The translations under genes and the position numbers were made by a program. Shown in pieces: positions 27,076 through 41,524 of a stretch of DNA of 42,461 bases; positions within the stretch are counted from its first letter, which is position 1; each line of letters starts with the position of its first letter. The DNA is taken from assembly GCA_900752535.1 (NCBI GenBank), contig CAADVV010000370.1:1-42461 (forward strand), read 5' to 3'. This stretch comes from Bacteroidales bacterium. GTDB lineage: Bacteria; Bacteroidota; Bacteroidia; Bacteroidales; Muribaculaceae. Under the pieces are notes generated by a model, which saw nothing but the letters and a program-made list of their open reading frames with translations, was not told the DNA's origin and ran no database searches.

Positions 27076-30000
27076 ATGAGTTACAACAAATTGAAATCAC
27101 TGGTGGCAAACGTGGAAGCCATTGCAACGGCAATGAAAATCCGTATCGACGACAGGCAAGCCACCGACGAAGAGAAAGAGGTATTATCCCGATATTCCGG
27201 TTTCGGGGGTATTAAAGACGTGTTGAGCATAGGAACGGAACGCACTGCCAACGATGATGTGGCCGAGCATATCCACAGGTTGCAAGACTTGATAGAAGCA
27301 TATCCCTATTACGACGACGCCATGCGGCAAGCCGTCATCGACAGTATAAAATCCTCTGTCCTGACCGCTTTTTACACGCCGAAATTCCTCATAGACGCAG
27401 TAGCCCGGCAGATACACGCCACATTCAAGGATAACAGCCTGCAAATGCGCACGTTCCTCGAACCCAGTGCCGGGATAGGCGGTTTTCTGCCCGTCGCCAT
27501 GCCTGACACCCGCAGCTACGCCTTTGAAAAAGATTGCCTTACGGGACTTATCCTGTCGTTTCTGCATGATAAGACGACCACGGTAACGGCAGGTTTCGAG
27601 ACGATAGCCGACCAGCATCTGGAGCACGGGAGCTTCGATGTTATCGCCTCGAATATCCCGTTCGGCAATTTCCGGGTGTTCGACGCGGAAATGTGGAAGA
27701 AAGGCGGCATGTACGAACAGTCAGCCAAGACCATACACAACTACTTTTTTGTCAAGGCAATGGAACTGTTGAACGAGGGCGGACTGCTGGCGTTCGTTGC
27801 GCCGAGAGGAATTGCCGACACGCCGGGCAACAAGTTCGTGCGCGAGTACCTCGTCAATCATGCCGACCTCATAACGGCCTTACGGCTGCCCGATACCCTT
27901 TTCATGCAGACGAGCGGCATAGAGGTAGGGAGCGACCTCCTGATATTCCAGAAACACAGCCGCAAGGCGACGCTCTCGTTACGGGAGAAGATGTTTTTGC
28001 AGGTTTCCAAGGAAAAGGCCGACACGGCGGGAACGACAACCGACTATGCGAATAAAATCTTTACCCTCCCCAAGACCGCCCTTGCCACGGACAGCCGCAT
28101 TGCGCTGAACCAGTTCGGAAAGTACGTCCGCAAATACCAGTGGTTAGGCGATGAAAATGCCATGTCCCAATACCTTTCCGCACTGCTCAAATACGACTTC
28201 GACCGCTATTTTCGCAAAGCTCTTTTCGCCAGCCACGGCCAAGACAACGCCCCCGTGCAGATGTCCCTTTTCGGCGAGCCGCAGACGGCCAAAGGCATAC
28301 GTGCCTACACGGAGAACATGGAAGCATGGATAAAGAACGGCGCAATGGTCGTTTTCGAGGGGCAGGTAGGTACGCTCCGGTTCCGCAAGTCGAGCCGTTA
28401 CACGGAGACAGCCGTCGATTTCGTACCCGTGGACGAGGGCAAGGTAAACACGGACAGGGCCGCCGACTATTTCCCCATACGCAAGGCGTATTTCGAGCTG
28501 TCCGGCAGGGAACGGGAAGAACAAAAGGAGTGCCCGGAGCTGCGTAAACAACTCAACGCCCTATACGACGCTTTTGTTGCCAAATGGGGATTTTTCCACG
28601 ACAACGACAACAAAGAGTTTATCATGCTCGACAGCCTCGGTACGGAGGTGTTCACGATAGAAATGCAGGTCGGCAGGGACATCTTCAAAGCCGATGTTAT
28701 GCGTGAACCAGTCGCTTTCAAGAAGATAGACACCGCCGTAACGCTGTCCCCCGTGGAAGCCTTGGCAAGCAGCCTGAACTTTTACGGCAAGGTCGATATG
28801 GGCTACATGGCACAAGCCACGAACAAGGAGGAAGAAGAAATCATCGAAGCCCTGCAAGGGGAAATCTTCTACAATCCGGCCAGCGCAGAATGGGAGCACA
28901 AAGGGAAGTTCCTCGCCGGAAACGTCATAGCCAAGCAGCAAGAAACGCTATCCTTTCTCCCGGATCTCGCCGGAAAGGAGAAAGAATGGGCCGAAGCGTC
29001 CGCAAAGGCACTGGAGAACACCATACCCGAACCGATACCCTATGAAGAACTCGACATCAACATGGGCGAGCGGTGGATAGATACGAAGCTGTACGCCGAT
29101 TTCGCCTCCGAACTCTTCGGAGTGGGTGCGGATGTGATGTATTTCGACGTGAACGACACCTACCTGATTCGGCTGCAGGGATATTCACCCGTGGCATACA
29201 ATACCTATTCCGTGCGCAACTACAACGGCGAGGATTTGTTTGTACACGCCCTGCACGATACCGTTCCCGAAATAACGAGAGAGGAATATCGGAACGGCAG
29301 CAAAGTACGTGTGCCGGACGAGGAAGCCATGCAGGAGGCCGCCGCCAAGATACAGGAAATCAGAGAACGTTTCAACCAGTGGCTCGACAACGAGCCACTG
29401 GAAGGCCGGGACGAACTGGTAAGGACATACAACGAGCGTTTCAACTGTTACGTGCGTCCGCACTACGACGGCTCGGCGCAGACATTCCCCGGCCTCTCTT
29501 TCGAGCAGTTCCCGTACAAAGAACTTTATCCCTCACAGAAAGACGCTATCTGGATGATAAAGCAGAACGGCGGCGGTATCTGCTGGCACGAGGTCGGTAC
29601 GGGCAAGACGATGATAATGTGCGTGGCCGCCTACGAAATGAAACGTCTCGGACTGGTGCAGAAACCCCTCATTATCGGGCTGAAAGCTAACGTGCACGAG
29701 ATTGCCGACACGTTCCGAAAGGCATACCCCGCAGCCAAGGTGCTCTATCCGGGCAAGGAAGATTTCACCCCTGCCAATCGCAAAGAGGTGTTTTCAAAAA
29801 TCAAGAACAACAACTGGGACTGCATTATCCTGACACACGACCAGTTTAGCAAGATTCCGCAGTCCGAAGAAACCATGTACGACATATTCTCGGAAGAACT
29901 GGCCGACGTGGAGCACAGCCTCGAAGTGTTGGAGCAGTCCACCATGCGCTACCGGAGCGGCAGGATGCAGAAAGGACTGGAAACCCGGAAACAAAACCTT

Positions 30001-32052
30001 AAAGCCAAGCTCGCCGAGCTGCAGATGAAGATAGACCGCCGGAAAGACGATACCGTCGATTTCCGCTCGATGGGCATAGACCACATATTTGTGGACGAAT
30101 GCCACTGCTATAAAAATCTGATGTTCCAGACACGCCACACGAGGGTAGCGGGCATCGGCAACGCGCAAGGCTCGCAAAGGGCGATGAACCTTTTGTTTGC
30201 CATTCGGGACATTCAACGCCGCACGGGAAAGGATTTGGGGGCTACGTTCCTGTCGGGTACGGTGGTCGTCAATGCGTTGACCGAACTGTACGTGATGTTC
30301 AAATACCTGCGTCCGAGGGAACTCAAGCGGCAACAAGTAAGCTGTTTCGACGCTTGGGCGGCTATCTTCACGAAAAAGACCGCTGACTACGAGCTGAACG
30401 TAACGGGTACGATAAAGCGCAAAGAGCGTTTCCGCACTTACATCAAAGTGCCGGAACTGGCGATGTTCCTGCGGGAGATTACCGACTATCGTACAGCCGA
30501 TATGATAAACCTCGATGTGCCGGACAAAAACGTGCGTTTCCTTTCCCATGCACCCACTATCCAACAGGAGGAAATGATCGGGCGGCTCGTCGCCTTTGCG
30601 CACAGCGGACAATGGGAAGATTTGGGGTTGGATATTCCGCAGCCGGACAATCTCGACAAGGCGAAAATGCTTGTAGCTACCAACGTGGCACGCAAGATGT
30701 CCCTTGATATGCGCTTGCTGGGCGACAAGTTCAGCGACGACGAGAACAACAAGGCTTCTATCTGTGCACGGACGATCTATGACTATTACGAGCGTTCGAC
30801 CGCCAACCGGGGCACGCAGTTCGTCTTCAGCGACCTTGCCACTTACAAGCCGAACGAGTGGAACATCTATAGCGACATCAAGAACAAGCTGGTGGCAATG
30901 GGGATTCCTGCCGATGAAATCCAGTTTATCCAGTGCGCCAAGACCGAACGGGCGAGAAAGAAACTCTTTGCGGACATGAACAGCGGCAGGGTACGGGTGT
31001 TGTTCGGCTCTACCTCGATGTTGGGAACGGGAGTAAACGCCCAGGAGAGGGCCGTTGCGGTGCATCATCTGGAGATACCTTGGCGCCCTGCCGACATGGA
31101 GCAGCGCAACGGTCGTGCGGTACGCAAGGGTAACACTGTCAAGCTCTGGGGAAACAACACCGTGGACGTGGTGATTTACGGTACGCAAAAGACGCTCGAC
31201 GCTTACAAATTTAACCTGTTGAAAAACAAGCAAATGTTTATCAACCAGATTAACAACGGTACGATTGCCGTGCGCCGTATCGACGAGGACGCTATGGACG
31301 AGGACAACGGCATGAATTTCGCCGAGTTCGTGGCTCTCCTGTCGGGAAATACCGACCTGTTGGAGAAAACGAAGCTCGACAACAAGATTATGCAGCTCGA
31401 AAAGGAACAGGCCATTTTCAAGAAAGACCGTATCAGGGCCGAGCGTAAGATTGCGGCCAACCGGGAAGACATAACAAAGGCCGAGAGTGCTGCCGAACGC
31501 ATGACGCAGGACTGGGAATATATCACCTCTTACACGAGAGACCGGACGACCCGGCTGTTGAACCTCGCACAAGCCACGGCGGAAGAGACCGGACGGGAGC
31601 TGCACCGCATTTCCAAGACCTACCGCAACGGGGCAATCAGCACGATAGGCACGTATGCCGGATTGAACCTTTCGGTGTACAGCGAGTATGACATGGGCGG
31701 TACATTTTACCGCAATACGTTCCTCGTCGAGGGCGTAAGCGGGCTTAAATACCGTTGCGGCCTGTCGGGCGCATTGCCTCTGGGCTTCGTAGAATCGTCC
31801 CGATACCCGCAAGCCGCCCTTGCCAAGCTGCCCGGCATGATTGAGGAACAACGGCAGAAGATTGCCAAGCTGGAGAGCGAGATACCCACCTTAGAGACAA
31901 TCATAGCCCGCAAGTGGAGCAAGGCGGACGAGTTGGCAAGGCTCAAACAAGAGTGCAACGCTTTACAGCATCGGATCGACGAGAGTATGAAAGAGGCGGA
32001 ACGCACGCAGTCCGTCCTTTCCGAACACGAGGCCAGCGATAAAGCGGCCTGA
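27076..32052 (+). CDS. N6-adenine DNA methyltransferase / SNF2-DEAD-like helicase fusion protein (1658 aa)
   Basis: SAM motif LEPSAGIGGF. Catalytic-type motif NIPFGN (27652-27669). Helicase motif I HEVGTGKT, motif II DECH (30094-30105), motif VI QRNGRAVRKGN. Coiled C-terminal region. Confidence 0.85.
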   Translation: MSYNKLKSLVANVEAIATAMKIRIDDRQATDEEKEVLSRYSGFGGIKDVLSIGTERTANDDVAEHIHRLQDLIEAYPYYDDAMRQAVIDSIKSSVLTAFYTPKFLIDAVARQIHATFKDNSLQMRTFLEPSAGIGGFLPVAMPDTRSYAFEKDCLTGLILSFLHDKTTTVTAGFETIADQHLEHGSFDVIASNIPFGNFRVFDAEMWKKGGMYEQSAKTIHNYFFVKAMELLNEGGLLAFVAPRGIADTPGNKFVREYLVNHADLITALRLPDTLFMQTSGIEVGSDLLIFQKHSRKATLSLREKMFLQVSKEKADTAGTTTDYANKIFTLPKTALATDSRIALNQFGKYVRKYQWLGDENAMSQYLSALLKYDFDRYFRKALFASHGQDNAPVQMSLFGEPQTAKGIRAYTENMEAWIKNGAMVVFEGQVGTLRFRKSSRYTETAVDFVPVDEGKVNTDRAADYFPIRKAYFELSGREREEQKECPELRKQLNALYDAFVAKWGFFHDNDNKEFIMLDSLGTEVFTIEMQVGRDIFKADVMREPVAFKKIDTAVTLSPVEALASSLNFYGKVDMGYMAQATNKEEEEIIEALQGEIFYNPASAEWEHKGKFLAGNVIAKQQETLSFLPDLAGKEKEWAEASAKALENTIPEPIPYEELDINMGERWIDTKLYADFASELFGVGADVMYFDVNDTYLIRLQGYSPVAYNTYSVRNYNGEDLFVHALHDTVPEITREEYRNGSKVRVPDEEAMQEAAAKIQEIRERFNQWLDNEPLEGRDELVRTYNERFNCYVRPHYDGSAQTFPGLSFEQFPYKELYPSQKDAIWMIKQNGGGICWHEVGTGKTMIMCVAAYEMKRLGLVQKPLIIGLKANVHEIADTFRKAYPAAKVLYPGKEDFTPANRKEVFSKIKNNNWDCIILTHDQFSKIPQSEETMYDIFSEELADVEHSLEVLEQSTMRYRSGRMQKGLETRKQNLKAKLAELQMKIDRRKDDTVDFRSMGIDHIFVDECHCYKNLMFQTRHTRVAGIGNAQGSQRAMNLLFAIRDIQRRTGKDLGATFLSGTVVVNALTELYVMFKYLRPRELKRQQVSCFDAWAAIFTKKTADYELNVTGTIKRKERFRTYIKVPELAMFLREITDYRTADMINLDVPDKNVRFLSHAPTIQQEEMIGRLVAFAHSGQWEDLGLDIPQPDNLDKAKMLVATNVARKMSLDMRLLGDKFSDDENNKASICARTIYDYYERSTANRGTQFVFSDLATYKPNEWNIYSDIKNKLVAMGIPADEIQFIQCAKTERARKKLFADMNSGRVRVLFGSTSMLGTGVNAQERAVAVHHLEIPWRPADMEQRNGRAVRKGNTVKLWGNNTVDVVIYGTQKTLDAYKFNLLKNKQMFINQINNGTIAVRRIDEDAMDEDNGMNFAEFVALLSGNTDLLEKTKLDNKIMQLEKEQAIFKKDRIRAERKIAANREDITKAESAAERMTQDWEYITSYTRDRTTRLLNLAQATAEETGRELHRISKTYRNGAISTIGTYAGLNLSVYSEYDMGGTFYRNTFLVEGVSGLKYRCGLSGALPLGFVESSRYPQAALAKLPGMIEEQRQKIAKLESEIPTLETIIARKWSKADELARLKQECNALQHRIDESMKEAERTQSVLSEHEASDKAA

Positions 32053-32077
32053 CCGTAATTCATAGATTTAACCTTTT

Positions 32078-32117
32078 CCCTCTGTTCGGTTACAAGGACC
32101 GGACAGGGGGACTTTTT
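32078..32117 (+). terminator. Intrinsic terminator after the methylase-helicase gene
   Basis: CCCTCTGTTCGG / CCGGACAGGGGG 12-bp stem with two G-T pairs, then ACTTTTT. Confidence 0.65.
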
Positions 32118-32280
32118 CATCTTCCGGTCTGCCGACGGCCATACCCGGTTGTAGCGGAATCTGCCCCTTGTACCTCCGACCACTCCTTTTATACCGTACT
32201 CTTTGTCTTTTATAGGCAGGCTTTCGCTTCCCCCTTTTGTAGATTGAGATGCCATCACGAACCGACGACCGTAAAGCCCG

Positions 32281-32486
32281 ACACTTTTTTCCGCAAAGTT
32301 GATTGCATCTCAAAACTTTGCCTCAAGGCCCATCTTCGATTTTCCTGATGAAAAATCTTCCTTCTCACTTCGTTCCAAGAGTATTTTTCATGGAATCCTT
32401 GCCGCAAACCCCGTGATGCAAAGACGAAGCAGAAAAAAGGATCAAACTTTCCGGTAATCGCTCGAACCGGAGGGAAATAAAAAAAC
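32281..32486 (+). repeat. Leader element L2 (divergent copy)
   Basis: TTTTTTCCGCAAAG 5' box and CGAACCGGAGGGAAATAAAAAAAC 3' box, spacing 179 nt. Ends 18 nt before the ATG at 32505. Confidence 0.55.
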
Positions 32487-32504
32487 TTAAAAACAAATTG
32501 AAAC

Positions 32505-33029
32505 ATGAAAAGAAATTCGCTTTTTGACAACTGGTTCGTTTTCAACTATCAGAGATTGCGTAACATATTCGGACGTTACTTGCACGAGGACGCCTTTCAC
32601 GACGCCTATTTGGTGATGAAACGGGAAGTCGTGATTTCGGAAATACCTGTCGAGAGTTTCGAGCCTTATTTTTTCGGCGTGTACAAGAAATGCAAGCTGA
32701 AATGTATTCACAAGGATAGTTATTACTGTTTCCCCGACAACGAACATTTCTTTTTGCTCATGCAGGAAGAGGAAACACCGTCCGTCGAGGTACTTGCAGC
32801 TTCCGACAAGTTGGTGTACGACATACTGCTGTTCGTGAAGAAGAAATATCCCCGAACGGACTACGAGCTTTTCAGGCTGAAAGAGTACGAGGCGAAATGT
32901 TCATACAGACACCTCTCTGCCTATGCAGGCATTTCCGCAAGTGCGATACACCGGAGAATAAGCGATATAGCCGACACTATCCGCAATCACGAAGGATTTT
33001 CTAAAAGGTATGCCCACGTAAATATGTAA
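32505..33029 (+). CDS. Sigma-70/ECF-like factor (region 2-like N-terminus, region 4-like HTH)
   Basis: HEDAFHDAYLVM and EPYFFGVYKKCKL are region-2-like. CSYRHLSAYAGISASAIHRRISDIADTIR is a region-4-like HTH. Assigned by pattern only. Confidence 0.5.
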   Translation: MKRNSLFDNWFVFNYQRLRNIFGRYLHEDAFHDAYLVMKREVVISEIPVESFEPYFFGVYKKCKLKCIHKDSYYCFPDNEHFFLLMQEEETPSVEVLAASDKLVYDILLFVKKKYPRTDYELFRLKEYEAKCSYRHLSAYAGISASAIHRRISDIADTIRNHEGFSKRYAHVNM

Positions 33030-33060
33030 TTCGTATAACCCATAAAATAATTCAAAAAAA

Positions 33061-33471
33061 ATGAAACTTGTAATTTACAACATTGAGAACTGCCGGACAA
33101 GAGAAAACCGGGTAGGCAAAAGGAGCATAAGGTTCAACAGCGTTACCGGCAATATGTATCTATCCACCAAACTGGCAAAAGAAATGAATATCACGATGAA
33201 TGACCGTCTGGAGTTTGCCCATGACGAGAACAATCCCAAAGAATGGTTTCTGCACAAGACCACCGACAAACAAGGTTTCCCGCTGCAGTTCAACAGAGGA
33301 GGAACACGCTTGAGGAATAAGTACATCTGTAAGACCATTTTGGATATAGCGAAAGTCAAGGAGAGCGCGACATTCTTGGTATCGAAAGACCCGGTAAAGA
33401 CCGAGCTGGGGCCATTTTACAGAATAATACTCTCTTGTCCCATTCTCCCGAAGAACAAGCCCAAACTATAA
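33061..33471 (+). CDS. Hypothetical protein
   Basis: 136-aa ORF 31 nt after the sigma-like gene, lower GC. No family recognised. Confidence 0.55.
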   Translation: MKLVIYNIENCRTRENRVGKRSIRFNSVTGNMYLSTKLAKEMNITMNDRLEFAHDENNPKEWFLHKTTDKQGFPLQFNRGGTRLRNKYICKTILDIAKVKESATFLVSKDPVKTELGPFYRIILSCPILPKNKPKL

Positions 33472-33491
33472 GCCTGTAACCTCTGTGGTCT

Positions 33492-33517
33492 GTCCGAAGG
33501 GCGGAAGCCTTTCGGAC
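33492..33517 (+). terminator. Hairpin after 33061..33471 (no T-run)
   Basis: GTCCGAAGG / CC(T)TTCGGAC stem. Confidence 0.35.
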
Positions 33518-34060
33518 GGATTGCAGGGCAGCCGATACCTTTTATAGCACGATTGTCTCCTTTTTTACCTTCAGGCTGTTTTCCCTGTTATACGTCGGCT
33601 TTCCCAGCCCGGTGAACCAGTGGGAAGTCTGTGCCGTAACAAGTCGTCAGGGAAAGGGACGGGAGGCCGTTTCAAACCGGCGGCAGCCCGGATCGTGCCG
33701 TTCCATGCCGGAGCTTCGACCTGTCGAAACAACACGGTATTCCACAGCCCGACCGGTCTTTATGCCGCTGGTTTCGGACTTTCCGCCTCTGTTCCGTATC
33801 TTTCCCTTATGACCTGCTACGTCAAGGGCAAACGGCGATACTTCTTATCCGCCCCGCGCTTTCATTCCGCCCGGTCGAAATTCAGGCGTGGAGCGGATAA
33901 GGAGAATCCCTTTCATGTTTGCCCTGGCAGACCATTGCCTGACCCGCCCAAGCCGCACTCTTTTCTACTTCATTTTCTCCTGCATTTATATCCGGCAAGG
34001 CCGTCCCCCCTTTTACCGTCATATTTTTCGACCGTTCCCGTCTCTTCTCTGCCGTTGCCG

Positions 34061-34263
34061 TCCGATTTTCCAACTGCAAAGGTCGGCTGCCGCGCTTGAT
34101 CCGGCGGCTTGAAGTGCATTCCCTGCAAATTTTTCCTTTCTGCGAAAGAGTAATTGGCCGGGAAAACCGCCGTATGAAGCCCTGCCGGCAGTCGTGCACC
34201 GCATCTGTAAAATCCCGGAACGGTTCAAGCAGAGAAAAGAACCGAAAAAAGGGTAAAAAACAG
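34061..34263 (+). repeat. Leader element L3 (core copy)
   Basis: Long identity runs with L4, L5 and L7: CGCGCTTGAT, GGCTTGAAGTG, TGCAAAT, GTAATTGGC, CGTATGAAGC. Box spacing 175 nt. Confidence 0.85.
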
Positions 34264-34286
34264 ATGTTTCACATAAAAGACAAACG

Positions 34287-34733: not shown

Positions 34734-34768
34734 GATACCGGTTCAAACAAAATAAGCTATGATAAGGT

Positions 34769-34806
34769 ATCGTGCCTATGACAGCACCATAGGTGAAAGG
34801 CACGAT
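34769..34806 (+). terminator. Nested hairpin after 34287..34733
   Basis: ATCGTGCC / GGCACGAT outer stem with inner stem CTATG / CATAG. Confidence 0.4.
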
Positions 34807-34949
34807 GCCCGTTTATAAATTACGCAACTCCGTTGGCGGTTTCCTTTTATACCTCTCTATTTCCCTCTGCTCTTATACTTTGGCGAGGCCCTCTTCCCTT
34901 TATATCAATTATATGTATAACCTCTACGGTCTCCTCTCTGCCATCGCCG

Positions 34950-35153
34950 TCCGATTTTTCAGATGCAAAGGTAGGCTGCCGCGCTTGATCCGGCGGCTTG
35001 AAGTGTATTTCTTGCAAATTCTTCCTTCTACGAAGAGTAATTGGCAAGAAAAGCCGTCGTATGAAGCTGTACCGGCAGCCGGGTACCGCATCTATAAAAT
35101 CCCGGAACGGTTCAGGCAGAGAAAGGAACCGAAAAGAGGGAAAAAATAAACAG
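34950..35153 (+). repeat. Leader element L4 (core copy), upstream of ssb
   Basis: Same element as L3. Box spacing 173 nt. Ends 47 nt before the ATG at 35201. Confidence 0.85.
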
Positions 35154-35200
35154 TTAGGTAACGGCAGGACCAACCAGCTTGCCACAAACAATTTTCTATT

Positions 35201-35614
35201 ATGTTACATGTTCACACTATCGGACGCATCGGCAAAGACTGCCAAGTAATTTCAGGAGCACACGGCTCATTCATGGCTATGGACATAGCCGTTGACGATT
35301 ATTCAAAGGGGCAAAACATCACCACTTGGGTAAGGGTACGCAGCAACAAGGACAACCATATTCGTTTGTCCGAATATCTGACGAAAGGAAGACTCATACT
35401 CGTCGAAGGTACGCTGTCATCTTCCCTGTGGGAGGACAAGAACGGGAATAGACAGATACAGCTTTCCATTACGGCAGAGAGCCTTGCCTTTATCAATACC
35501 GGGAAACGGGAAGGCGCGGCAAACGGGGAGGGCAATGCAGTAAGCGGGGCAGACGGCGCACCCGTTCCTCCCGCAGATTTCCTGCAAGAGGAAAAGGAAG
35601 ATTTGCCATTCTGA
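35201..35614 (+). CDS. ssb: Single-stranded DNA-binding protein
   Basis: OB-fold pattern (TIGRIGKD..., TTWVRVRS, YLTKGRLILVEGTL). Gly-rich linker and acidic tail EEKEDLPF. Confidence 0.85.
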   Translation: MLHVHTIGRIGKDCQVISGAHGSFMAMDIAVDDYSKGQNITTWVRVRSNKDNHIRLSEYLTKGRLILVEGTLSSSLWEDKNGNRQIQLSITAESLAFINTGKREGAANGEGNAVSGADGAPVPPADFLQEEKEDLPF

Positions 35615-35638
35615 TAAAAAGTAAGTCTTTGAAAATAA

Positions 35639-35834
35639 AGGAATACTAAATGTAGTATATCCTATATGTAGTAGATTAGTAGCCGCTCGTCTGCGAATGT
35701 AGGATATACTACTCTTAGTTAAACTTGATTTTAGGATAGTAGTAAATACTAAAATACTATATTCCTAAAATAATAGTTTTTAGTGAATTAGTATATACTA
35801 ATTTTAGTATTTACGAAAAATAGTATTAACTTTG
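35639..35834. promoter_or_regulatory. AT-rich array of TAGTAT/ATACTA-core repeats (centromere/operator candidate) plus -7 box TAACTTTG (35827-35834) upstream of parA
   Basis: GTAGTATATCCTA (35652-35664) and its inverted copy TAGGATATACTAC (35700-35712). Perfect palindrome TTAGTATATACTAA near 35789. Further TAGGATAGTAGTA, AATACTA, TAGTATT copies. Confidence 0.55.
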
Positions 35835-35858
35835 CAAGTGGAATAAAAGAGTGAAGCG

Positions 35859-36614
35859 ATGACAAAAATAATTGCAATTTTGAACCATAAGGGAGGAGTC
35901 GGAAAGACGACCACCACCATCAATCTGGCTGCGGCCCTGCAGCAGAAGAAAAAACGCGTGCTGGCTATCGACATGGACGGTCAGGCGAATCTCACGGAAT
36001 CCTTCGGCCTCTCCATTGAAGAGGAACAGACGGTGTACGGGGCGATGAAAGGTAAATACCCCTTGCCATTAGTTGAGACGGCAGGAGGTGTTACCGTCGT
36101 ACCGTCCTGTCTCGATCTCTCGGCTGCCGAGGCAGAACTCATCAACGAGCCGGGACGGGAACTGATATTGAACGGCCTGATTGGCAAATTGCTCGAAAGC
36201 CGGAAATTCGATTATATCCTTATCGACTGCCCGCCCTCGTTGGGATTGCTGACGCTGAATGCCCTTACCGCCGCAGACTATCTGATTATCCCGGTACAGG
36301 CACAGTTCCTCGCCATGCGTGGCATGGCCAAGATCATGAACGTGATTGCCACCGTCCAGGAACGCCTGAACCCGAAACTCGCTATCGGCGGCATTGTAAT
36401 TAACCACTTCGACAAACGCCAGACGCTGAACAAAAGTGTGGCCGAACTCGTCAAGGATTCATTCTGCGACAAAGTGTTCAAGACCGTTATACGGGATAAC
36501 GTATCTTTGGCCGAAGCCCCCATAAAGGGCAAGAACATCTTCGAGTATAGCAGGAACAGCAACGGAGCCAAGGATTACATGGCTCTGGCACAAGAGGTAT
36601 TGAAATTAAAATAA
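35859..36614 (+). CDS. parA: ParA/Soj-family partition ATPase
   Basis: Deviant Walker A KIIAILNHKGGVGKTTT and Walker B-like YILIDCPPSLG. Confidence 0.9.
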   Translation: MTKIIAILNHKGGVGKTTTTINLAAALQQKKKRVLAIDMDGQANLTESFGLSIEEEQTVYGAMKGKYPLPLVETAGGVTVVPSCLDLSAAEAELINEPGRELILNGLIGKLLESRKFDYILIDCPPSLGLLTLNALTAADYLIIPVQAQFLAMRGMAKIMNVIATVQERLNPKLAIGGIVINHFDKRQTLNKSVAELVKDSFCDKVFKTVIRDNVSLAEAPIKGKNIFEYSRNSNGAKDYMALAQEVLKLK

Positions 36615-36620
36615 CCCGAT

Positions 36621-36875
36621 ATGAGCAAGAGCGATTTACTGAAAGACAGCATGAAAGGTGGACTGGACGGATTGCTGTCACCCACGAAAAAGACTACCGG
36701 CGGAAAACAGCCGGTAGCAGCCCCCACGGAGAAAGAAACGGCGGTTCATTGCAACTTCGTCATCAACAAAAGCATTCATACCCGTATGAAATTCCTCGCC
36801 ATCAAGAAGAACATGTCGCTGAAAGACATCGTGAACGAGGCAATGAAAGAATATCTGGAAAAGAACGAACAGTAA
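36621..36875 (+). CDS. Small ParG/RHH-like DNA-binding partner of ParA (tentative)
   Basis: 84 aa, 6 nt after parA. Disordered basic N-terminus. C-terminal NFVINKSIHTRMKFLAIKKNMSLKDIVNEAMKEYL fits a strand-helix-helix pattern. Confidence 0.55.
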   Translation: MSKSDLLKDSMKGGLDGLLSPTKKTTGGKQPVAAPTEKETAVHCNFVINKSIHTRMKFLAIKKNMSLKDIVNEAMKEYLEKNEQ

Positions 36876-36879
36876 ACAG

Positions 36880-36932
36880 GCATGGCTGCCGCATCTGCCC
36901 ACCCCGGAGACGGTAGCCATGCGTCCTTTTTT
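36880..36932 (+). terminator. Intrinsic terminator after the parA unit
   Basis: GCATGGCT / AGCCATGC stem followed by GTCCTTTTTT. Confidence 0.55.
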
Positions 36933-37110
36933 ATCCGCCCGCTGTTTCCATAGGGCGCATTCCACCTTTATAGTCTTACTATCTTTTTCTTTTTACCTGC
37001 CCGCAAGTACAGGCACATTGCCCGTTTTATCCCTATTCTAACCCTGACGGGCATATCCCTTTTTTACCGATTCCTTTACCGCTTTCCCGGCTTCATTCTC
37101 TGCCGTCACC

Positions 37111-37320
37111 GTTGTGTTTTATCAGATGCAAAGGTCCGCTGTCGCGCTTGATACGGCGGCTTGAAGTGCATTTCCTGCAAATTCTTCCTTTCTACGAAAG
37201 AGTAATTGGCAGGAAAAGCCGTCGTATGAAGCTGTACCGACAGCCGTGTACCGCATCCGTAAAACCTCAAAGCGGTTCAGGCAGAGAAAGGAACCGAAAG
37301 GAGGGAAAGAAAAAACAACG
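37111..37320 (+). repeat. Leader element L5 (core copy)
   Basis: Same element as L3 and L4. Box spacing 175 nt. Ends 16 nt before the ATG at 37337. Confidence 0.85.
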
Positions 37321-37336
37321 TAAAATTGACAGCGAT

Positions 37337-37588
37337 ATGGATAAAATCAAATTGGTAGTTTATAACGAGTACGCACTGGGTTATATCATGCCCGAACAAC
37401 CCGACAAAGTTTGTACGTTGGTGGATAGGATAACGCTCGGCGCACCGTTTCGGACAATGAATGAACCCTATTTCATCGGGGAAAGAGATACCGTCAGACT
37501 GGCGGGCAGAAAGGACTTTGACACTTTTCGGGTAGTGTTCGACGGGTACGACAATCCGCAGGAGTACGAGTTTGACACCGCACAATAA
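37337..37588 (+). CDS. Small hypothetical protein (83 aa)
   Basis: The track ORF 37112..37588 was trimmed to the first ATG after the leader (MDKIKLVVYNEYALGY...). The upstream part of that ORF is repeat sequence. Confidence 0.55.
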   Translation: MDKIKLVVYNEYALGYIMPEQPDKVCTLVDRITLGAPFRTMNEPYFIGERDTVRLAGRKDFDTFRVVFDGYDNPQEYEFDTAQ

Positions 37589-37641
37589 AGACAATAGTAA
37601 TCAAACAATCTAATGTAATAACAAATTAAAATTTATGAATT

Positions 37642-39396
37642 ATGGAAACAGCGAACATTCAATCAGTAGTAGAGAACAACATCGTATCAGTTGCATTGAT
37701 GAATATTCAGCCGAGCAGTTATAACCCACGCAAGCACTTTGACGAGGCGAGCCTTGCCGAACTGGCCGAGAGCATTCGTCAGCAGGGAGTATTGCAACCT
37801 ATCGGCGTGCGCCCCATTGCGGACACCGACCGCTTCGAGATTGTTTTCGGAGAGCGCAGGTATCGTGCCGCCCTTATGGCAGAACTGACCGAAATTCCGG
37901 CTGTCATCTTGCATGTTTCGGACGAGACCGCCGCCGAAATGGCCGTGACGGAGAACCTGCAGCGCAAGGACGTTACCCCCATAGAGGAAGCCAACGCCTA
38001 CCAAAAACTTATGGAGAGCGGTCGCTATGATGTGCAGTCATTGGCCGAGCAGTTCGGCAAGAACGAGAACTATATCCGTACCCGTCTGAAATTCGTCTCT
38101 CTGATACCCGAAATCGCCGAACTTTTGGAAAAGGACGAAATTACAATCAGCGTGGCGAGTGAGATTTGCCGATACGGTACGGATATTCAGAAAGAGGTGT
38201 ACTACAAACATTTGAAAGACAGCGACAGCATGTTGTACGACTGTTGGCGAGGACTGAAAGCCGCCGAGGTGGCAAAGTTTATCGAACGGGATTTCACGAC
38301 AGACCTTAGCCGTTACGCATTCGACAAGACCTTGTGCGCCTCATGCCCCCACAATACCAACAACATGATGTTGTTCTGCGAGGGTGGTTGCGGAAATTGC
38401 GCCAACCGGAGTTGTCTGGCCGAAATGAACGCTTCCTATCTCGTGGAGAAAGCCGTGCAGTTCGTGGAACAATACCCCTCCGTATCGCTATGCTACCAAG
38501 ATTTCAACAACAACATGATTGCGGTGGAACGCCTTACCGCTATGGGGTACGAGGTCGAGCACCTAAATACCTATGCCACGCCATACCCCGAAACGCCGGT
38601 AGCTCCCGAAAAGGAAGAATACGACACTATCGAGGAATACGAGCAGGCATACAAGGAGTACGAGCAGGATTTCAGCAACTATATGGAAAAATGCAAGTCA
38701 ATCCATGAACGAATTGACACGGGCGAACTCACGTTTTATATTAGTATCGGACAGAAAGAAATTACGCTGTGTTACATGGCAAGTGCTGCCGCCAATGCGG
38801 ACATGGCTACCGAAAAACAACTCTCCCCGGTGGAAAAACTGGAGAAGCAGGACAAACGTAACAAGGAAATAGCCGTCGAGAAAACCGTTGCAGACGCTAA
38901 GAAACTGATTTTGGACGTTGATACGTCTGAAAGCAAATTCACGCAGGACGAAGAAAAGATGATATATTTCTTCCTGCTGTCGTCTCTCCGCAGGGAACAC
39001 TTCGGCGTATTCGGTATCGGGGAGAAAAAAGCCTACCAACACCTTGAGGACGAAGAAAAAATGAACATCATCGCCAATCTAACGGCCAAGCAGAAAGCCG
39101 TTATCCGCAGGGATTTCTTGATAGACAACTTCAAAGACGCATACGGCAATAACGCTGCTGCCACCCTCTTGCTTGATTTTGCCCGTAAGCACATGCCCGA
39201 CACGCTCGCCGAAATTGAAAGTGGATATAATGAGGTGTATGAGAAACGCCATAAACGTATCGAGGAACGCAAAGCCGCCTTGTTGGCAAAGGAACGGCAA
39301 ACGCAGCCCGAAGAAGCCGCCAAGGCAGAAAATACACAACCCACGGCAGAGGTACAACCCGAAGAACATACGCAAACCGAAGAGGTTGCAGCTTGA
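37642..39396 (+). CDS. parB: ParB/Spo0J-family N-terminal domain protein with Cys cluster and long acidic C-terminal region
   Basis: NPRKHFDEASLAELAESIRQQGVLQPIGVRP and FEIVFGERRYRAA (GERR box). Cluster CASCPHNTNNMMLFCEGGCGNCANRSC. Confidence 0.8.
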   Translation: METANIQSVVENNIVSVALMNIQPSSYNPRKHFDEASLAELAESIRQQGVLQPIGVRPIADTDRFEIVFGERRYRAALMAELTEIPAVILHVSDETAAEMAVTENLQRKDVTPIEEANAYQKLMESGRYDVQSLAEQFGKNENYIRTRLKFVSLIPEIAELLEKDEITISVASEICRYGTDIQKEVYYKHLKDSDSMLYDCWRGLKAAEVAKFIERDFTTDLSRYAFDKTLCASCPHNTNNMMLFCEGGCGNCANRSCLAEMNASYLVEKAVQFVEQYPSVSLCYQDFNNNMIAVERLTAMGYEVEHLNTYATPYPETPVAPEKEEYDTIEEYEQAYKEYEQDFSNYMEKCKSIHERIDTGELTFYISIGQKEITLCYMASAAANADMATEKQLSPVEKLEKQDKRNKEIAVEKTVADAKKLILDVDTSESKFTQDEEKMIYFFLLSSLRREHFGVFGIGEKKAYQHLEDEEKMNIIANLTAKQKAVIRRDFLIDNFKDAYGNNAAATLLLDFARKHMPDTLAEIESGYNEVYEKRHKRIEERKAALLAKERQTQPEEAAKAENTQPTAEVQPEEHTQTEEVAA

Positions 39397-39452
39397 CCAT
39401 AATTCAATAGCAGGACGGAGAAATCCGCCCTGCTGGTTTCTAAAAAGAGGTA

Positions 39453-39620
39453 ATGATGAAATGTAAGGACTGCAAACATTACAACGGTGCAACAATGCCC
39501 GGAGCAGGATTGTGCAATGCGACACAGGCACGTACCTTTGCCACGACGGTTTGTTTCAACGGATTGTTTTCTCCGAAAAAACGGAAAGACAAGCCGGATA
39601 GCAAGGCCGGAAAAAAATAG
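39453..39620 (+). CDS. Small Cys-containing protein (55 aa; below ORF-track cutoff)
   Basis: MMKCKDCKHYNGATMPGAGLCNATQARTFATTVCFNGLFSPKKRKDKPDSKAGKK. Preceded by AAAAAGAGG and followed at once by a strong terminator. Confidence 0.45.
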   Translation: MMKCKDCKHYNGATMPGAGLCNATQARTFATTVCFNGLFSPKKRKDKPDSKAGKK

Positions 39621-39635
39621 CGCAACGCTACAGGG

Positions 39636-39665
39636 AGATAGCCGCAGGAGCGGCTGTCTTTTTTA
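39636..39665 (+). terminator. Intrinsic terminator
   Basis: 10-bp stem AGATAGCCGC / GCGGCTGTCT with one G-T pair, loop AGGA, then TTTTT. Confidence 0.7.
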
Positions 39666-39750
39666 GCACTGCCGCCGGCAGATCTCCCTTTTTACCCCTT
39701 CGTTTTCCTTTTGTATGGAAATCCCTTCGCCGACGGCTCTGCCCGTCGGG

Positions 39751-40002
39751 ACATGCTTTTTCCGGTGCAAAGGTATTGCCTTGGAGGAACATTCAAGTAC
39801 CGCTACGCTATTTGAACACAATTTTTCAGCAGCTTTCCCGATTTTCAATCGTCCATATTTCGCGGACGCTCAATACCGCAGCTATAAAATTCTGCCCAAA
39901 TTCCTTGCCTGTTTCTCCCTGAAAGGCAATCTTTGATGCACGTAAAAATCAAATCCCGACGGGAGAAGCCTGAAGGCTTCCGAAAGGAGGGAAAAAATAA
40001 AC
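39751..40002 (+). repeat. Leader element L6 (divergent, longer copy)
   Basis: TTTTTCCGGTGCAAAGGT 5' box. Hairpin GAAGCC-TGAA-GGCTTC, then CGAAAGGAGGGAAAAAATAAAC 3' box. Spacing 222 nt. ATG at 40034. Confidence 0.55.
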
Positions 40003-40033
40003 GGATTGTTCAACTAATTAATGTTAAGATTTT

Positions 40034-40549
40034 ATGGAAATTCAATTTGCTATCGTGCGTTCCGAAAACAGAGACTATTTGTGCTACAAAGCAGGTGAAG
40101 CGTATGTAGATGCCAGTAACCCTATGATTGCCTTTGCCGCAGGCGAAGATGAATTTGAAATCGTAGAGCCGGACAGCTCTTTCAGGCAGAAAGAATACGA
40201 GTTCAGAGGCGAAAAGTATTATTTTGTACCAGAGTTTTACCGCAATGGTTGGTTAGCTCTCACCTTGGTAATGGTGGAAGATGAAGACGAATATATCGTA
40301 CTTTCCGTTAATTTGGAGGAAATGGACGCACTCGGTCTGCCGGACCGTACATTTATCGACGTCAATCATTACCCCGAAGCAATGGAGTTCTTGGTGAAAA
40401 ACGGACTGGCGACCGATTCCGAGTATAAGCGCAGGAGCGGATTCGTGGAATATCCGATGGCTATGCTGAACTTGCCGCTTCTTTATCAGCATAACCCGCA
40501 AATTTTTCAAAAAGCGAACATCGAGCCATTCGGAGAAGAATGTTTTTGA
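40034..40549 (+). CDS. Acidic hypothetical protein (DUF4313-like, tentative)
   Basis: 171 aa. By my count 33 D/E against 14 K/R. Confidence 0.6.
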   Translation: MEIQFAIVRSENRDYLCYKAGEAYVDASNPMIAFAAGEDEFEIVEPDSSFRQKEYEFRGEKYYFVPEFYRNGWLALTLVMVEDEDEYIVLSVNLEEMDALGLPDRTFIDVNHYPEAMEFLVKNGLATDSEYKRRSGFVEYPMAMLNLPLLYQHNPQIFQKANIEPFGEECF

Positions 40550-40608
40550 AAAAGGATTGTTCCACGAATAGAAAAGCATCGGGTTCCGAAAATTGAATGT
40601 ACAAGATG

Positions 40609-40634
40609 GCGTACCGATAACACAGTCGGTGCGC
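40609..40634 (+). terminator. Hairpin terminator candidate
   Basis: GCGTACCGA / TCGGTGCGC stem with one G-T pair, followed by a T-rich tract. Confidence 0.4.
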
Positions 40635-40790
40635 TATCTCCTTTGTCTTTATCGCCCGCCTTCGTCCTTTTATAGTCAGCCTCCCGAATACCCCGCCACC
40701 ACCTGTTTCCTTTTATAATTGCATTCTTTCCCTTTTGTAGCGGTATGAACCGCCTGTTCTTCCCATCCGGCTTTTCCGTCCCTCACCGCA

Positions 40791-40993
40791 CGGGTTTTAT
40801 CCGATGCGAAAGTCGGACGTCGCGCTTGATTCGCCGGCTTGAAGTGCACTTCTTGCAAATTCTTCCTTCCCAAATGAAGCGTAATTGGCAAGAAGAGCCG
40901 TCGTATGAAGCCGTGCCGACGACCGTGCATTGCATCTGTAAAACCTCGAAGCGATTCCGAAGGAAAGGAATCGAAAAAAGGGAAATAAATAAT
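40791..40993 (+). repeat. Leader element L7 (core copy)
   Basis: Same element as L3-L5 but with compensatory stem changes. Box spacing 174 nt. Ends 17 nt before the ATG at 41011. Confidence 0.85.
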
Positions 40994-41010
40994 CAATAAC
41001 TCACAAGATA

Positions 41011-41487
41011 ATGGGAAAATACGATTTTATCAAGACCGGGAATCTGCTTTATTGGCATGACCCGGACAACGGTTTGTCCGACGGGGCTTACCGAGTGATT
41101 TCTGCACCGGAAAACATGGAAGACGACAGCATTATTCTGATTTCGTCCGGTACTTCGGAAGCGGAGGTTTTGCCTTCGGAATTATCACCGATAAGCACGG
41201 GCAGAAGTCACAAAGAGGATTTTTTGCGCTGGAAAGCGGAACGTGAGGCAGAAGGCATGGAGTTTTACAATCGCCTTTCCGAAGTCATGGATACGGAGGA
41301 CGATTTGGCCGTAGGCGACATAGTGGCATTTACAAACGATTATGGAGTAGTATTCGGCCCTCAAGAGGTATTAGCTTTCAGGAAGCCTTGGAACGGTGAC
41401 AGATGCGTGTATCTTGACAGCGACGCCTATTGGTTTCCCGACCGTCCCGACCAGTTGACCCTCCTAAGCAAGAAAGGGGCGGAATGA
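41011..41487 (+). CDS. Acidic hypothetical protein
   Basis: 158-aa ORF directly after leader L7 and followed by a strong hairpin. Confidence 0.6.
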   Translation: MGKYDFIKTGNLLYWHDPDNGLSDGAYRVISAPENMEDDSIILISSGTSEAEVLPSELSPISTGRSHKEDFLRWKAEREAEGMEFYNRLSEVMDTEDDLAVGDIVAFTNDYGVVFGPQEVLAFRKPWNGDRCVYLDSDAYWFPDRPDQLTLLSKKGAE

Positions 41488-41495
41488 CAATGACA

Positions 41496-41524
41496 AACCC
41501 ACCCGCTTTTGTGGCGGGTGGGTT
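41496..41524. terminator. Bidirectional terminator between convergent genes
   Basis: AACCCACCCGC / GCGGGTGGGTT 11-bp stem with a 7-nt loop. Confidence 0.7.

Follow-up and report, generated by a model that had tools for sequence, protein, structure and literature searches.

Repeated hairpin leaders containing an inverted promoter as a probable family of single-stranded-DNA promoters in a Bacteroidales conjugative element

Introduction

To our knowledge, single-stranded-DNA (ssDNA) promoters are the only known route by which anti-defence and establishment genes can be expressed before a conjugative element has become double-stranded, and demonstrations of them are limited to enterobacterial plasmids of the IncF and IncI groups. 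A full-text literature search yielded no paper combining "ssDNA promoter" with Bacteroid*. In the human gut, gene flow is carried mainly by ICEs of Bacteroidales. In the IncN plasmid pKM101, CUP direct repeats reportedly described by Delver and Belogurov in 1997 precede successive leading-region genes and supply their promoters; these are said to be duplex promoters with repressor sites and not hairpins with an inverted promoter.

The closest described systems are the Frpo/ssi elements of IncF and IncI1 plasmids (Frpo1 and Frpo2 of F, ssi1-3 of ColIb-P9 and classes 1-3 of pESBL). Six large hairpins of three sequence classes are known from pESBL and F, one before each induced leading operon, and their start sites were mapped (PMC12672017; PMC9849209). 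According to Masai & Arai (1997), as cited in PMC12672017, Frpo also primes DNA synthesis. The EGeRS1 sequences of the pLS20 family are likewise repeated, long, structured and non-coding, and they precede anti-restriction and establishment genes of a conjugative element; their structure yielded no promoter, and it is the non-template strand that is transferred (PMC8708921). The sso elements of rolling-circle plasmids and of ICEBs1, which is described as carrying a functional sso, are presented in PMC4595007 as orientation-specific long hairpins that recruit the host RNA polymerase on the displaced or transferred strand.

Gene content and extent of the block

The window, i.e. the whole stretch of 42,461 nucleotides that was analysed, belongs to a Bacteroidales conjugative element. 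All supported genes between 27076 and 41487 are located on the plus strand, which confirms the single orientation claimed in the preliminary description, and the gene content named there was also recovered: a methylase-helicase, a sigma-like gene (on weak signals), ssb, parA with an RHH gene, a ParB-like gene and small orphans, of which six were counted. The first gene of this range encodes an N6-adenine methylase fused to an SNF2/ResIII helicase (27076-32052, 1658 aa; Pfam N6_Mtase and ResIII/SNF2/Helicase_C). The next unit comprises the sigma-like gene (32505-33029, 174 aa) and an orphan gene (33061-33471, 136 aa). It is followed by a structured stretch without a gene (33521-33990, plus strand), in which folding predicts hairpins at ~33620-33821 and ~33825-33925 and which is possibly a decayed unit. 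An orphan gene (34287-34733, 148 aa), ssb (35201-35614; Pfam SSB) and the parA cassette described below come next. Downstream of these, a small orphan gene (37337-37588, 83 aa, phrog_11458), the ParB-like gene (37642-39396; ParB_N and HTH_ParB), a small orphan Cys-rich ORF (39453-39620, 55 aa), a small orphan DUF4313 gene (40034-40549) and an orphan gene (41011-41487, 158 aa) were found.

The preliminary description had let the block run from 27076 to 41524, and these limits were too narrow on both sides. Sister copies of the element have more leader-gene units after hipBA (L047:12471-12872), and an extra unit was detected on the left at about 24085-24594. Including the latter, the co-oriented leader-gene units span more than 17 kb of the element. 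The small ORF of this unit (24368-24594, plus strand, 74 aa), read from the sequence, lies downstream of its leader, and a family search assigned it to none.

Three weak but concordant signals point to a sigma factor for ORF 32505-33029. The ORF matched TIGR02937 across its full length (E 4e-4; 20 bits, below the cut-off of 42.9) and phrog_1740 (sigma factor, E 1e-3), and with its AlphaFold2 model (pLDDT 75) the top Foldseek matches in the PDB were ECF sigma factors only, although these matches are weak (probability 0.96-1.0, but E 0.01-0.08 and TM ~0.3). A Pfam search of this ORF gave no family. It is therefore best described as a putative, divergent ECF-sigma-like protein.

Structure and conservation of the leader sequences

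The leader repeat that had been reported at most units is real and exceeds what is expected by chance. Four copies with 64-89% identity form the main family (about 34030-34265, 34918-35152, 37080-37317 and 40755-40996); the second precedes ssb, and the last is the most diverged of its family in the window. Diverged leaders precede the methylase-helicase gene (26805-27055), the sigma-like gene (32255-32480) and the DUF4313 gene (39715-40000), and probably also the ORF at 24368, outside the range originally considered, where the unit-0 leader (24085-24330) folds into a long hairpin and ends in GCGAAAGCAGGGAAAGAAAAAAC with the AGGGAAA end motif. All copies have the orientation of their gene, i.e. 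the plus strand, and are ~220-270 nt long.

A feature missed by the preliminary description is the long, imperfect hairpin formed by every copy. The leader HMM matches its own reverse strand. The complementary ends CCCTTT...AAAGGG enclose a palindrome of ~230 nt, and in the main-family reference leader (37080-37317) the loop lies at about 37196. Folding z-scores range from -6 to -7.2 across the leaders; for 37040-37340 they are -7.2 for the minus strand as DNA and -6.0 for the plus strand as RNA.

For a wider comparison, 52 distinct leader copies were collected from 46 Bacteroidales loci, and a consensus structure was obtained by a vote of the per-sequence folds (only a partial structure resulted when RNAalifold was applied to the raw MAFFT alignment). 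Canonical pairs occupy 85.9% of the stem cells in 50 distinct copies with 55-100% identity, versus 34-48% in slid registers and 79.2% (maximum 80.3%) in column shuffles. Double compensatory changes were found in 39 of the 70 stem pairs (shuffle mean 28, maximum 35). The hairpin thus covaries, and the same applies to a small 3' stem-loop, CGGYTC...GARCCG, which is followed by AGGGAAAA and would lie in the mRNA. A search of the window against Rfam 15 at gathering thresholds gave no match, and the only match with E<1 was a chance-level cow-rumen-1 inside the methylase gene.

The minus strand folds better than the plus strand in about 20 of 20 leaders. The mean difference is -17.0 kcal/mol versus -13.0 kcal/mol in mononucleotide shuffles, and since the shuffles reproduce most of it, this asymmetry is treated as mostly compositional. 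G:T wobbles in the minimum free energy folds show the same tendency (300 versus 174), and the consensus pairs lean mildly in this direction (171 versus 128).

A promoter on the opposite strand inside the hairpin

The gene-distal arm of the hairpin contains the -7 box of the Bacteroides sigma-A promoter, TAnnTTTG, always on the strand antisense to the gene and 195-285 nt before the ATG. Of 20 leaders, 13 reached the full score of 6/6 for this box and six others reached 5/6. In the window it is represented on the minus strand by TACCTTTGC before the methylase-helicase gene (26871-26879, with ATTGG 20 nt upstream of the box) and in the ssb leader (34965-34973, TTT bulged out), by CAACTTTGC before the sigma-like gene (32293-32301), by GACCTTTGC in the leaders before 34287 (34076-34084) and before the 83-aa gene (37128-37136), and by the degenerate GACTTTCGC at 40806-40814. 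A full reverse promoter, CTTGAA-N-TACCTTTG, is present before the DUF4313 gene (39768-39797, minus strand). The unit-0 leader (24085-24330) was searched for a consensus -7 box and none was found. In most leaders outside the main family, (C/T)TTG occurs 17-20 nt upstream of the -7 box; the main family of the window has the -7 box only, and a -33 element at canonical spacing is absent. The combined pattern CTTG-N17-20-TAnnTTTG was found six times in the locus L115 versus 0.63 expected, and all six matches are on the minus strand and within leaders.

On the sense strand the sequence between hairpin and ATG contains no 6/6 box in any of the 20 leaders, and no sigma-A box was found from each upstream terminator hairpin to the ATG. 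For ordinary genes of the window, the box has the direction of the gene and lies 20-50 nt ahead of it (9466, 12389 and 35827; on the minus strand 8383 and 26601).

In the predicted ssDNA folds, 1-7 unpaired nucleotides lie in or abut the -7 box in 19 of 19 leaders, with the flanks and the final G paired. The box reads from the loop to the base of the distal arm, so that in the folded template strand transcription would enter the downstream gene. Position +1 is predicted to pair with an A-run located 57-109 nt upstream of the ATG. The start points predicted in this way are 27008-27012 (methylase-helicase), 32433-32438 (sigma-like gene), 34207-34210 (148-aa orphan), 35094-35097 (ssb), 37259-37261 (83-aa gene) and 39944-39946 (DUF4313 gene). 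The coupling to the genes is strict: in all 52 distinct copies an ORF starts 45-80 nt after the hairpin, leaders precede SSB, ParB and at least 11 further gene families, and 8 or more leaders occur per element.

Transferred strand and position of the relaxase

That oriT and the relaxase are missing from the window had been noted before, and a search of the window, of 10 kb to its left and right and of the tra operon recovered neither. The 10 kb to the left encode ArdC-like and SSB-like proteins and three integrases, and the 10 kb to the right contain hipBA, small units, DUF1016 and the T4CP. The tra operon was followed through viral-contig loci (VirB4, DUF4134 genes, primase, AAA_25, integrase). 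Relaxases met on this walk (L078; L051) were rejected because they are located in inserted mobilisable elements, and they are 62-65% identical to each other. Candidate proteins of 524, 477, 601 and 848 aa, searched as relaxases, gave no family, PDB or HUH-motif signal. For the region upstream of mobV in L115, no homologue was found in window-type loci.

Leaders are co-oriented throughout the window and the loci L047, L115 and L116. In a related ICE of the T6SS type, 107 of 108 leader signatures in loci with a MobV relaxase have the orientation of mobV; the 80 MobV loci found by the metagenome scan are all at least 95% identical, near-copies of one ICE, and the 107:1 count therefore does not consist of independent observations. 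The relaxase is typically located beside oriT in the region that enters last (PMC11541004). Together with this rule, the co-orientation with mobV fits a transfer of the template strand of the leader genes, by analogy with the related ICE.

The block itself lies next to hipBA and is convergent with the T4CP/tra operon. Its homologous part in the T6SS-type ICE is far from the MobV relaxase, and L115 has one leader block 5-12 kb upstream of mobV and another downstream. For these reasons the hairpin device seems to be spread over all co-oriented establishment genes and not to be confined to a leading segment. Of the earlier suggestion that the block is a leading region with an Frpo-like device for early expression, the device gains support from the covarying hairpin, the reverse sigma-A promoter, the predicted bubble and the F-like gene content, and the leading-region location stays conjectural.

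Possible function of the leaders and alternative explanations

The leaders resemble the Frpo/ssi elements in several respects. Both are large imperfect intergenic hairpins directly before operons that are early or, in the window, putatively early, with several co-oriented copies and sequence classes per element and with host promoter boxes in the stem, and in both cases ssb, a large methylase, a ParB-like protein and small orphans are located downstream. The ssb leader of F folds into a hairpin of ~310 nt (z -7.35), similar in size and z-score to the window leaders, and the order of the F leading region (methylase, antirestriction, ssb, small gene, ParB-like) parallels the block. The leaders gave no blastn match in 20,395 E. 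coli records including F-type plasmids. Differences concern the boxes, which are those of Bacteroides (-33 TTTG and -7 TAnnTTTG) and not -35/-10, and the linear sequence: the window promoter is canonical there and directed away from the gene, whereas in Frpo2 of F, used as a positive control for the box geometry, the fold was as expected and a search of both strands, extended to relaxed thresholds, revealed no linear sigma-70 match. In addition, the ICE of the window has 8 or more units over more than 17 kb, its relative carries them on both sides of the relaxase, and the units belong to an ICE from a different phylum.

It is probable that the leaders represent a Frpo-type family of ssDNA promoters in Bacteroidota. 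That each leader is a ssDNA promoter of the Frpo/ssi kind, written in Bacteroides promoter grammar, is the explanation we favour, with a probability of about 0.55. The ICE would enter the recipient as a single strand, proposed to be the minus strand of the window and thus the template of the block genes, and each inverted repeat of 220-270 nt would fold into a long imperfect hairpin. Its 3' (gene-distal) arm would present the non-template sequence of the sigma-A promoter (C/T)TTG-N18-TAnnTTTGC from loop to base, and the 5' (gene-proximal) arm would pair with it and act as template. The small bubble at the -7 box may ease melting. Transcription would be initiated at the A-run of the proximal arm (57-109 nt upstream of the ATG), RNA polymerase would leave the hairpin into the gene, and the resulting 5' UTR would contain the small conserved stem-loop and the AGGGAAAA motif. 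As soon as the complementary strand is made, the hairpin would be gone, no sense-strand promoter would be left, and the genes would presumably fall silent.

The hairpin could also act at the RNA level or in another non-promoter manner, as a leader comparable to EGeRS1 within a long 5' UTR produced by read-through or by a sense promoter that escaped recognition, and regulate each establishment gene through stability, processing, termination or translation. The plus-strand RNA indeed folds strongly (z -6.0), the covarying CGGYTC...GARCCG stem-loop with AGGGAAAA would be part of the mRNA, the strand asymmetry is mostly compositional (-17.0 versus -13.0 kcal/mol when shuffled; G:T 171 versus 128), and for the repeated structured pre-operon sequences of the pLS20 family, a function as ssDNA promoters was considered highly unlikely by the authors (PMC8708921). 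Nevertheless, we regard this explanation as unlikely: the sense strand has no sigma-A box from the upstream terminator hairpin to the ATG, Rfam families gave no match, and the conserved canonical promoter on the opposite strand, its fixed place in the distal arm and the conserved predicted bubble would be left unexplained. The canonical promoter in the stem also sets the leaders apart from EGeRS1-like sequences, and the only available relaxase orientation is consistent with transfer of the template. A role restricted to sso/ssi-type initiation, in which the hairpins recruit RNA polymerase or Toprim primases to prime the complementary strand and expression is incidental, agrees with an architecture equal to that of RNA polymerase-dependent sso elements and Frpo and with the several Toprim/primase proteins encoded by the ICE. 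It is improbable as the sole function, since priming needs neither the fixed short ORF spacing (52 of 52) nor 8 or more copies per element, and a conserved 5'-UTR stem-loop and an A-rich tract follow the predicted start; moreover, an sso is single per element and uncoupled from ORF starts, whereas the window leaders are gene-by-gene cassettes. Priming and gene expression do not exclude each other.

Ordinary duplex promoters firing leftward would be a further explanation, with the palindrome being secondary and the product a short antisense or non-coding RNA that, for example, silences the preceding unit. The -33/-7 boxes are canonical in the linear minus strand, and such RNAs would cover CCTTTTATA-type boxes, which are enriched on the plus strand (29 versus 8.2 expected). 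Yet no conserved ORF or structure is evident to the left, and the covariation of the proximal arm, the fixed spacing to the ATG and the expression of the downstream gene would have no explanation, so that we give this view a low probability as well. It is very improbable that the leader is a selfish palindromic repeat (MITE/ERIC-like) that has spread through intergenic regions. An imperfect palindrome of ~230 nt with complementary ends CCCTTT...AAAGGG and many copies would suit such a repeat, but the copies have a single orientation relative to the downstream ORF and a fixed spacing, matches to the core pattern, which come from 43 genome stretches, repeatedly precede one and the same set of ICE genes, and across ICE types the divergence of the copies follows that of their genes. 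With their strict gene-sense orientation and fixed ORF spacing, the leaders were also not assigned to the MITE/REP-like palindromes.

A point against the ssDNA-promoter explanation is that a promoter with a canonical linear sequence would be expected to fire leftward in duplex DNA as well, and we know of no description of such firing for Frpo. The missing -33 element of the main family, the lack of sequence similarity to Frpo and the convergence of the block on the T4CP/tra operon also count against it. As a tentative and rather doubtful extension of the ssDNA-promoter explanation, the leaders could act as a toggle: the same promoter would drive the right-hand gene on ssDNA and, after second-strand synthesis, fire antisense leftward past the CCTTTTATA boxes and thereby shut the block. 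The ECF-like sigma factor encoded by the ICE and a protein with an RNA polymerase alpha-CTD domain, encoded beside the T4CP, might tune this toggle. Such a regulatory logic, gene by gene across whole Bacteroidota ICEs, would be undescribed for Frpo.

If the leaders are ssDNA promoters, the device would also have evolved in a different phylum, and with an entirely different promoter grammar. Early genes could then be recognised by a signature consisting of the reverse TAnnTTTG in the distal hairpin arm and the AGGGAAA end, about 200 nt before the ATG. A dozen or more leader-bearing orphan families would become candidate anti-defence or establishment factors, and the leaders would give exact, testable predictions of the start sites.

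The parA cassette and the hairpins following the units

Just as claimed in the preliminary description, the region upstream of parA has no hairpin leader and carries a TAGTAT-repeat region instead: nine of the window's 14 TAGTAT/ATACTA hexamers are located within 35643-35826. This array of the centromere/operator type is followed by TAACTTTGC at 35827-35835, an ordinary sense promoter with a canonical -7 box ahead of parA (35859-36614; ParA), and by a gene for an RHH ParG/Arc-like protein (36621-36875), all on the plus strand. With a small Walker ParA, an RHH protein and a clustered upstream hexamer array overlapping an ordinary promoter, the sequence from 35643 to 36875 has the features of a type Ib partition cassette, the single unit of the block in which the hairpin device is absent.

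Hairpins exist at all the sites after units for which terminators had been proposed, and a clear T-run is present only at some of them (32111, 36922 and 39659). A generic terminator scan showed no overall enrichment (19 found versus 21 expected). Terminator hairpins followed by a T-run were found on the plus strand at 32077-32111 (15 bp), ~36880-36922 and 39636-39659. The plus strand also has a hairpin with 14-nt arms and without a T-run after unit 2 (33489-33520), one after unit 3 (~34765-34815) and a terminator-like hairpin of 15 bp at 40604-40639. An additional hairpin not listed before is located at 39409-39434, and a perfect hairpin of 11 bp (41496-41524, no strand assigned) separates the block from the convergent hipA.

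Leader hairpins and their conservation

The four close copies of the main leader family in the window showed 64–89% identity across ~230 nt. An HMM built from these copies matched each of them on the opposite strand, too, because every leader copy is a long imperfect palindrome. For the reference leader (37040–37340), a single hairpin of ~215 nt was predicted, with z-scores of -7.2 for the minus-strand DNA and -6.0 for the plus-strand RNA. Across the leaders, the better folding of the minus strand mostly reflects base composition, and the wobble counts lean only weakly. All leader folds reported here are predictions. A like fold was obtained for the sequence-diverged regions before 27076, 32505 and 40034, and also for the sequence upstream of a small ORF starting at 24368, which lies outside the range stated in the preliminary description (27076–41524).

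No family matching the leader was found in Rfam. A search with the core pattern of the leader yielded 3 stretches from a viral collection and 43 genome stretches, the latter from Bacteroides, Phocaeicola, Parabacteroides, Prevotella and relatives, Alistipes, Rikenellaceae and Fermentimonas, and 52 distinct leader copies were obtained from these stretches. Covariation was scored on the consensus of the per-sequence folds. Canonical pairs occurred in 85.9% of the stem cells (slid registers 34–48%; column shuffles 79.2%, maximum 80.3%), and double compensatory changes were present in 39 of 70 pairs (shuffle mean 28, maximum 35). An ORF starts 45–80 nt past every leader copy, and the ORFs behind the leaders represent at least 11 small-protein families as well as SSB and ParB. 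A second, sequence-divergent leader set was detected in another ICE (NZ_OY725888.1, loci L115 and L116), where it precedes genes for SSB, DUF4313, LPD11, a big methylase and many orphans.

Beside the long hairpin, a small stem-loop (CGGYTC-loop-GARCCG), followed by A(A/C)A(G/A)AGGGAAAA, is located at 37265–37310 and at equivalent positions. It covaries independently of the long hairpin, with one pair changed from TA to CG in 8 copies and zero mismatches. Its loop is predicted to pair with the lower stem of the long hairpin, so that the two folds would be alternatives. A gene-less stretch of 470 nt (33521–33990) between the genes of unit 2 (32505–33471) and the next leader opens with three CCTTTTATA-type boxes and folds, by prediction, into two more long hairpins (~33620–33821 and ~33825–33925). 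This stretch may be a decayed leader-gene unit.

A predicted reverse promoter in the gene-distal arm

The sole motif common to all leader families is TGCAAAGGT(A), the reverse complement of the documented Bacteroides sigma-A -7 box TAnnTTTG(C) (PMC4747536, PMC9723704). Among 20 leaders from four loci, the antisense strand carried this box with 6/6 positions in 13 and with 5/6 in 6 leaders, always in the gene-distal arm and 195–285 nt before the ATG, and no 6/6 box was found on the sense strand from the hairpin to the ATG. Control genes of the window possess the -7 box 20–50 nt upstream on their own strand (for example, those after 9466, 12389 and 35827 on the plus strand and after 8383 and 26601 on the minus strand). 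Most leaders outside the main family also showed (C/T)TTG 17–20 nt (usually 18) upstream of the box, in the conserved context GCGGTACTTGAA. The combined pattern CTTG-N17-20-TAnnTTTG matched 6 times in L115 (0.63 expected), exclusively on the minus strand and within leaders, and in one leader of the window (39768–39797).

In the predicted single-strand folds, 1–7 nt in or next to the -7 box were unpaired, with both flanks paired, in all 19 leaders tested. Two bulges are conserved in the predicted fold of the main family, one of 3 nt made up of the TTT in the box and one of 9 nt (ATGCACTTC).

Boxes resembling CCTTTTATA are enriched in the window (29 versus 8.2 expected). Nearly all are located on the plus strand, with 2–4 per intergenic region and a spacing of often ~21 nt (26736–26765, 32185–32241, 33538–33592, 34809–34904, 36925–37066, 39707 and 40666–40739). 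The AAAGGG end motif pairs with whichever box lies closest to the hairpin; the other boxes might be bound by proteins or belong to a leftward RNA.

Putative promoter function in the entering strand

If the minus strand is present as a single strand, the distal arm would be the 3' arm of the hairpin and would run 5'-(-33)...(-7)-3' from loop to base, and the proximal arm would serve as template, with the polymerase reading it 3' to 5' from the loop down to the base and then continuing into the gene. Opposite the expected +1, all 19 leaders have an A-run, located 57–109 nt before the ATG. The start points predicted in this way for the window are 27008–27012, 32433–32438, 34207–34210, 35094–35097, 37259–37261 and 39944–39946. 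A 5' UTR from such a start would hold the covarying stem-loop CGGYTC...GARCCG and the AGGGAAAA motif. We consider it somewhat probable (roughly 0.55) that the leaders are ssDNA promoters, by which a leader folded in the entering template strand would drive the downstream gene. The rest of the probability is divided among leaders acting at the RNA level, signals for priming only, leftward promoters in duplex DNA and a selfish repeat. In duplex DNA, the leader boxes point leftward, away from the gene, and a sense promoter was not visible before the leader genes. A full-text literature search revealed no paper joining "ssDNA promoter" with Bacteroid*.

Six leading operons that are induced early in F and pESBL are each preceded by a large hairpin, with three sequence classes among these hairpins; promoter boxes are reconstituted in them, and start sites were mapped in transconjugants (PMC12672017; PMC9849209). 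For the F ssb leader, a hairpin of ~310 nt (z -7.35) was predicted, and the gene order around it is methylase, antirestriction, ssb, small gene and ParB-like. The Bacteroidales leaders differ from these Frpo promoters in promoter grammar and lack sequence similarity to them; their promoter is canonical in the linear sequence, whereas that of Frpo2 is not, according to the scans done here. The Bacteroidales element also possesses many more units, which, unlike those of F and pESBL, spread past a single leading segment. The EGeRS1 repeats before the establishment operons of pLS20 resemble the Bacteroidales leaders, and their authors judged a function as ssDNA promoters "highly unlikely" (PMC8708921). 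This verdict on look-alike repeats keeps a function of the leader at the RNA level alive.

Neither a relaxase nor an oriT of the window element was found in the window, within 10 kb on either side or in the tra operon. The related ICE of NZ_OY725888.1, which carries the type VI secretion tube gene tssD and thus is of the T6SS-bearing kind, encodes a MobV relaxase co-oriented with the leaders; one leader block is located 5–12 kb upstream of mobV and another downstream. Metagenome loci with mobV, in 17 distinct arrangements, contained 108 leader signatures, of which 107 were co-oriented with mobV; since the loci represent a single ICE in near-identical copies, these observations are not independent of each other. 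Relaxase genes are usually located next to oriT, in the part of an element that enters last (PMC11541004). If this rule is combined with the co-orientation of mobV, all leader genes would have the transferred strand as their template, as is the case in F. Listed as a "plasmid" in PLSDB, NZ_OY725888.1 is a chromosomal contig, the first 60 kb of which contain genes for ribosomal proteins. A group II intron (ltrA) interrupts the large methylase gene of the ICE that it carries (L116:18930–26372).

Gene content of the block

According to gene calls and profile searches of the window, the genes at 27076–41487 are located on the plus strand exclusively, as claimed in the preliminary description. They encode an N6-methylase/SNF2-helicase fusion of 1658 aa (27076–32052), a "sigma-like" protein of 174 aa (32505–33029), orphans of 136 aa (33061–33471), 148 aa (34287–34733) and 158 aa (41011–41487), SSB (35201–35614), ParA with an RHH ParG/Arc-like protein (35859–36875), an 83-aa protein with a 584-aa ParB_N+HTH protein (37337–39396), a Cys-rich ORF of 55 aa (39453–39620) and a DUF4313 protein (40034–40549). 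The label of the putative sigma-like protein draws on three weak but concordant signals: a full-length match to TIGR02937 (E 4e-4), a match to phrog_1740, and an AF2 model whose best PDB matches were all ECF sigma factors, but with E 0.014–0.08 and TM ~0.3. Inside the methylase-helicase gene, a sub-threshold Rfam match to cow-rumen-1 (30602–30661; 22.8 bits versus a gathering score of 53.4, E 0.22) most likely occurred by chance.

The hairpins described earlier at the unit ends are present at the given coordinates, and a T-run follows only some of them. The TAGTAT-repeat region described in place of a leader copy before parA was also confirmed: 9 of the 14 TAGTAT/ATACTA hexamers of the window are located within 184 nt upstream of parA, and an ordinary sense-strand promoter box follows this array. 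Together with the ParA/RHH genes, the repeats make up a type Ib partition cassette. The content immediately before the array varies among copies (L051:1–4545; L078:11–2974; L053:18656–20666): this swap point is occupied by ssb, by TonB-type cargo or by a small mobilisable element (relaxase, NikA-like, DUF3408, HTH_17). A similar relaxase-integrase element is located inside the tra region of another copy.

Layout of the host ICE

The window belongs to a Bacteroidales ICE, for which CP103253.1 (around 4.06–4.08 Mb) and NZ_CP192724.1 (B. hominis Tbg-374) are candidate carriers among finished genomes. A minus-strand operon on the left (DUF4099, Toprim paralogues, M23 peptidases, ArdC-like, SSB-like) ends at three integrases, and cargo (TonB receptor, HmuY, GNATs) lies between this operon and the leader block. 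To the right of the block, hipBA, more leader units and DUF1016 are followed by T4CP and an MPF-B tra operon (TraN, TraM, TraK, VirB4, DUF4134), convergent with the leader block, and by a primase and an integrase beyond it.

The co-oriented block is broken between unit 0 (leader 24085–24330, ORF 24368–24594) and the methylase leader at 24650–26574, where an AT-rich insert with genes for a 94-aa protein and an XRE-type HTH protein (24762–25334) is followed by two minus-strand GNAT acetyltransferase genes (25556–26574). The hipA/hipB toxin-antitoxin pair, on the opposite strand, also splits the block (window 41552–42364; L047:10696–12305), and past it the leader-gene units resume (65, 100, 90 and 125 aa). 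In the tra operon of L118 (NZ_OY725768.1), the gene directly before that for T4CP is annotated as "RNA polymerase alpha C-terminal domain-containing protein" (L118:14082–14819). This annotation and the sigma-like gene hint that the ICE may modify the host RNA polymerase.

A recombinase trio flanks the left operon, in which two adjacent Toprim-domain paralogues of 477 and 482 aa (2856–5734, minus strand) showed near-identical N-terminal halves and similar C-terminal tails. The related ICE possesses one toprim gene (563 aa; L116:6546–8237) at this place.
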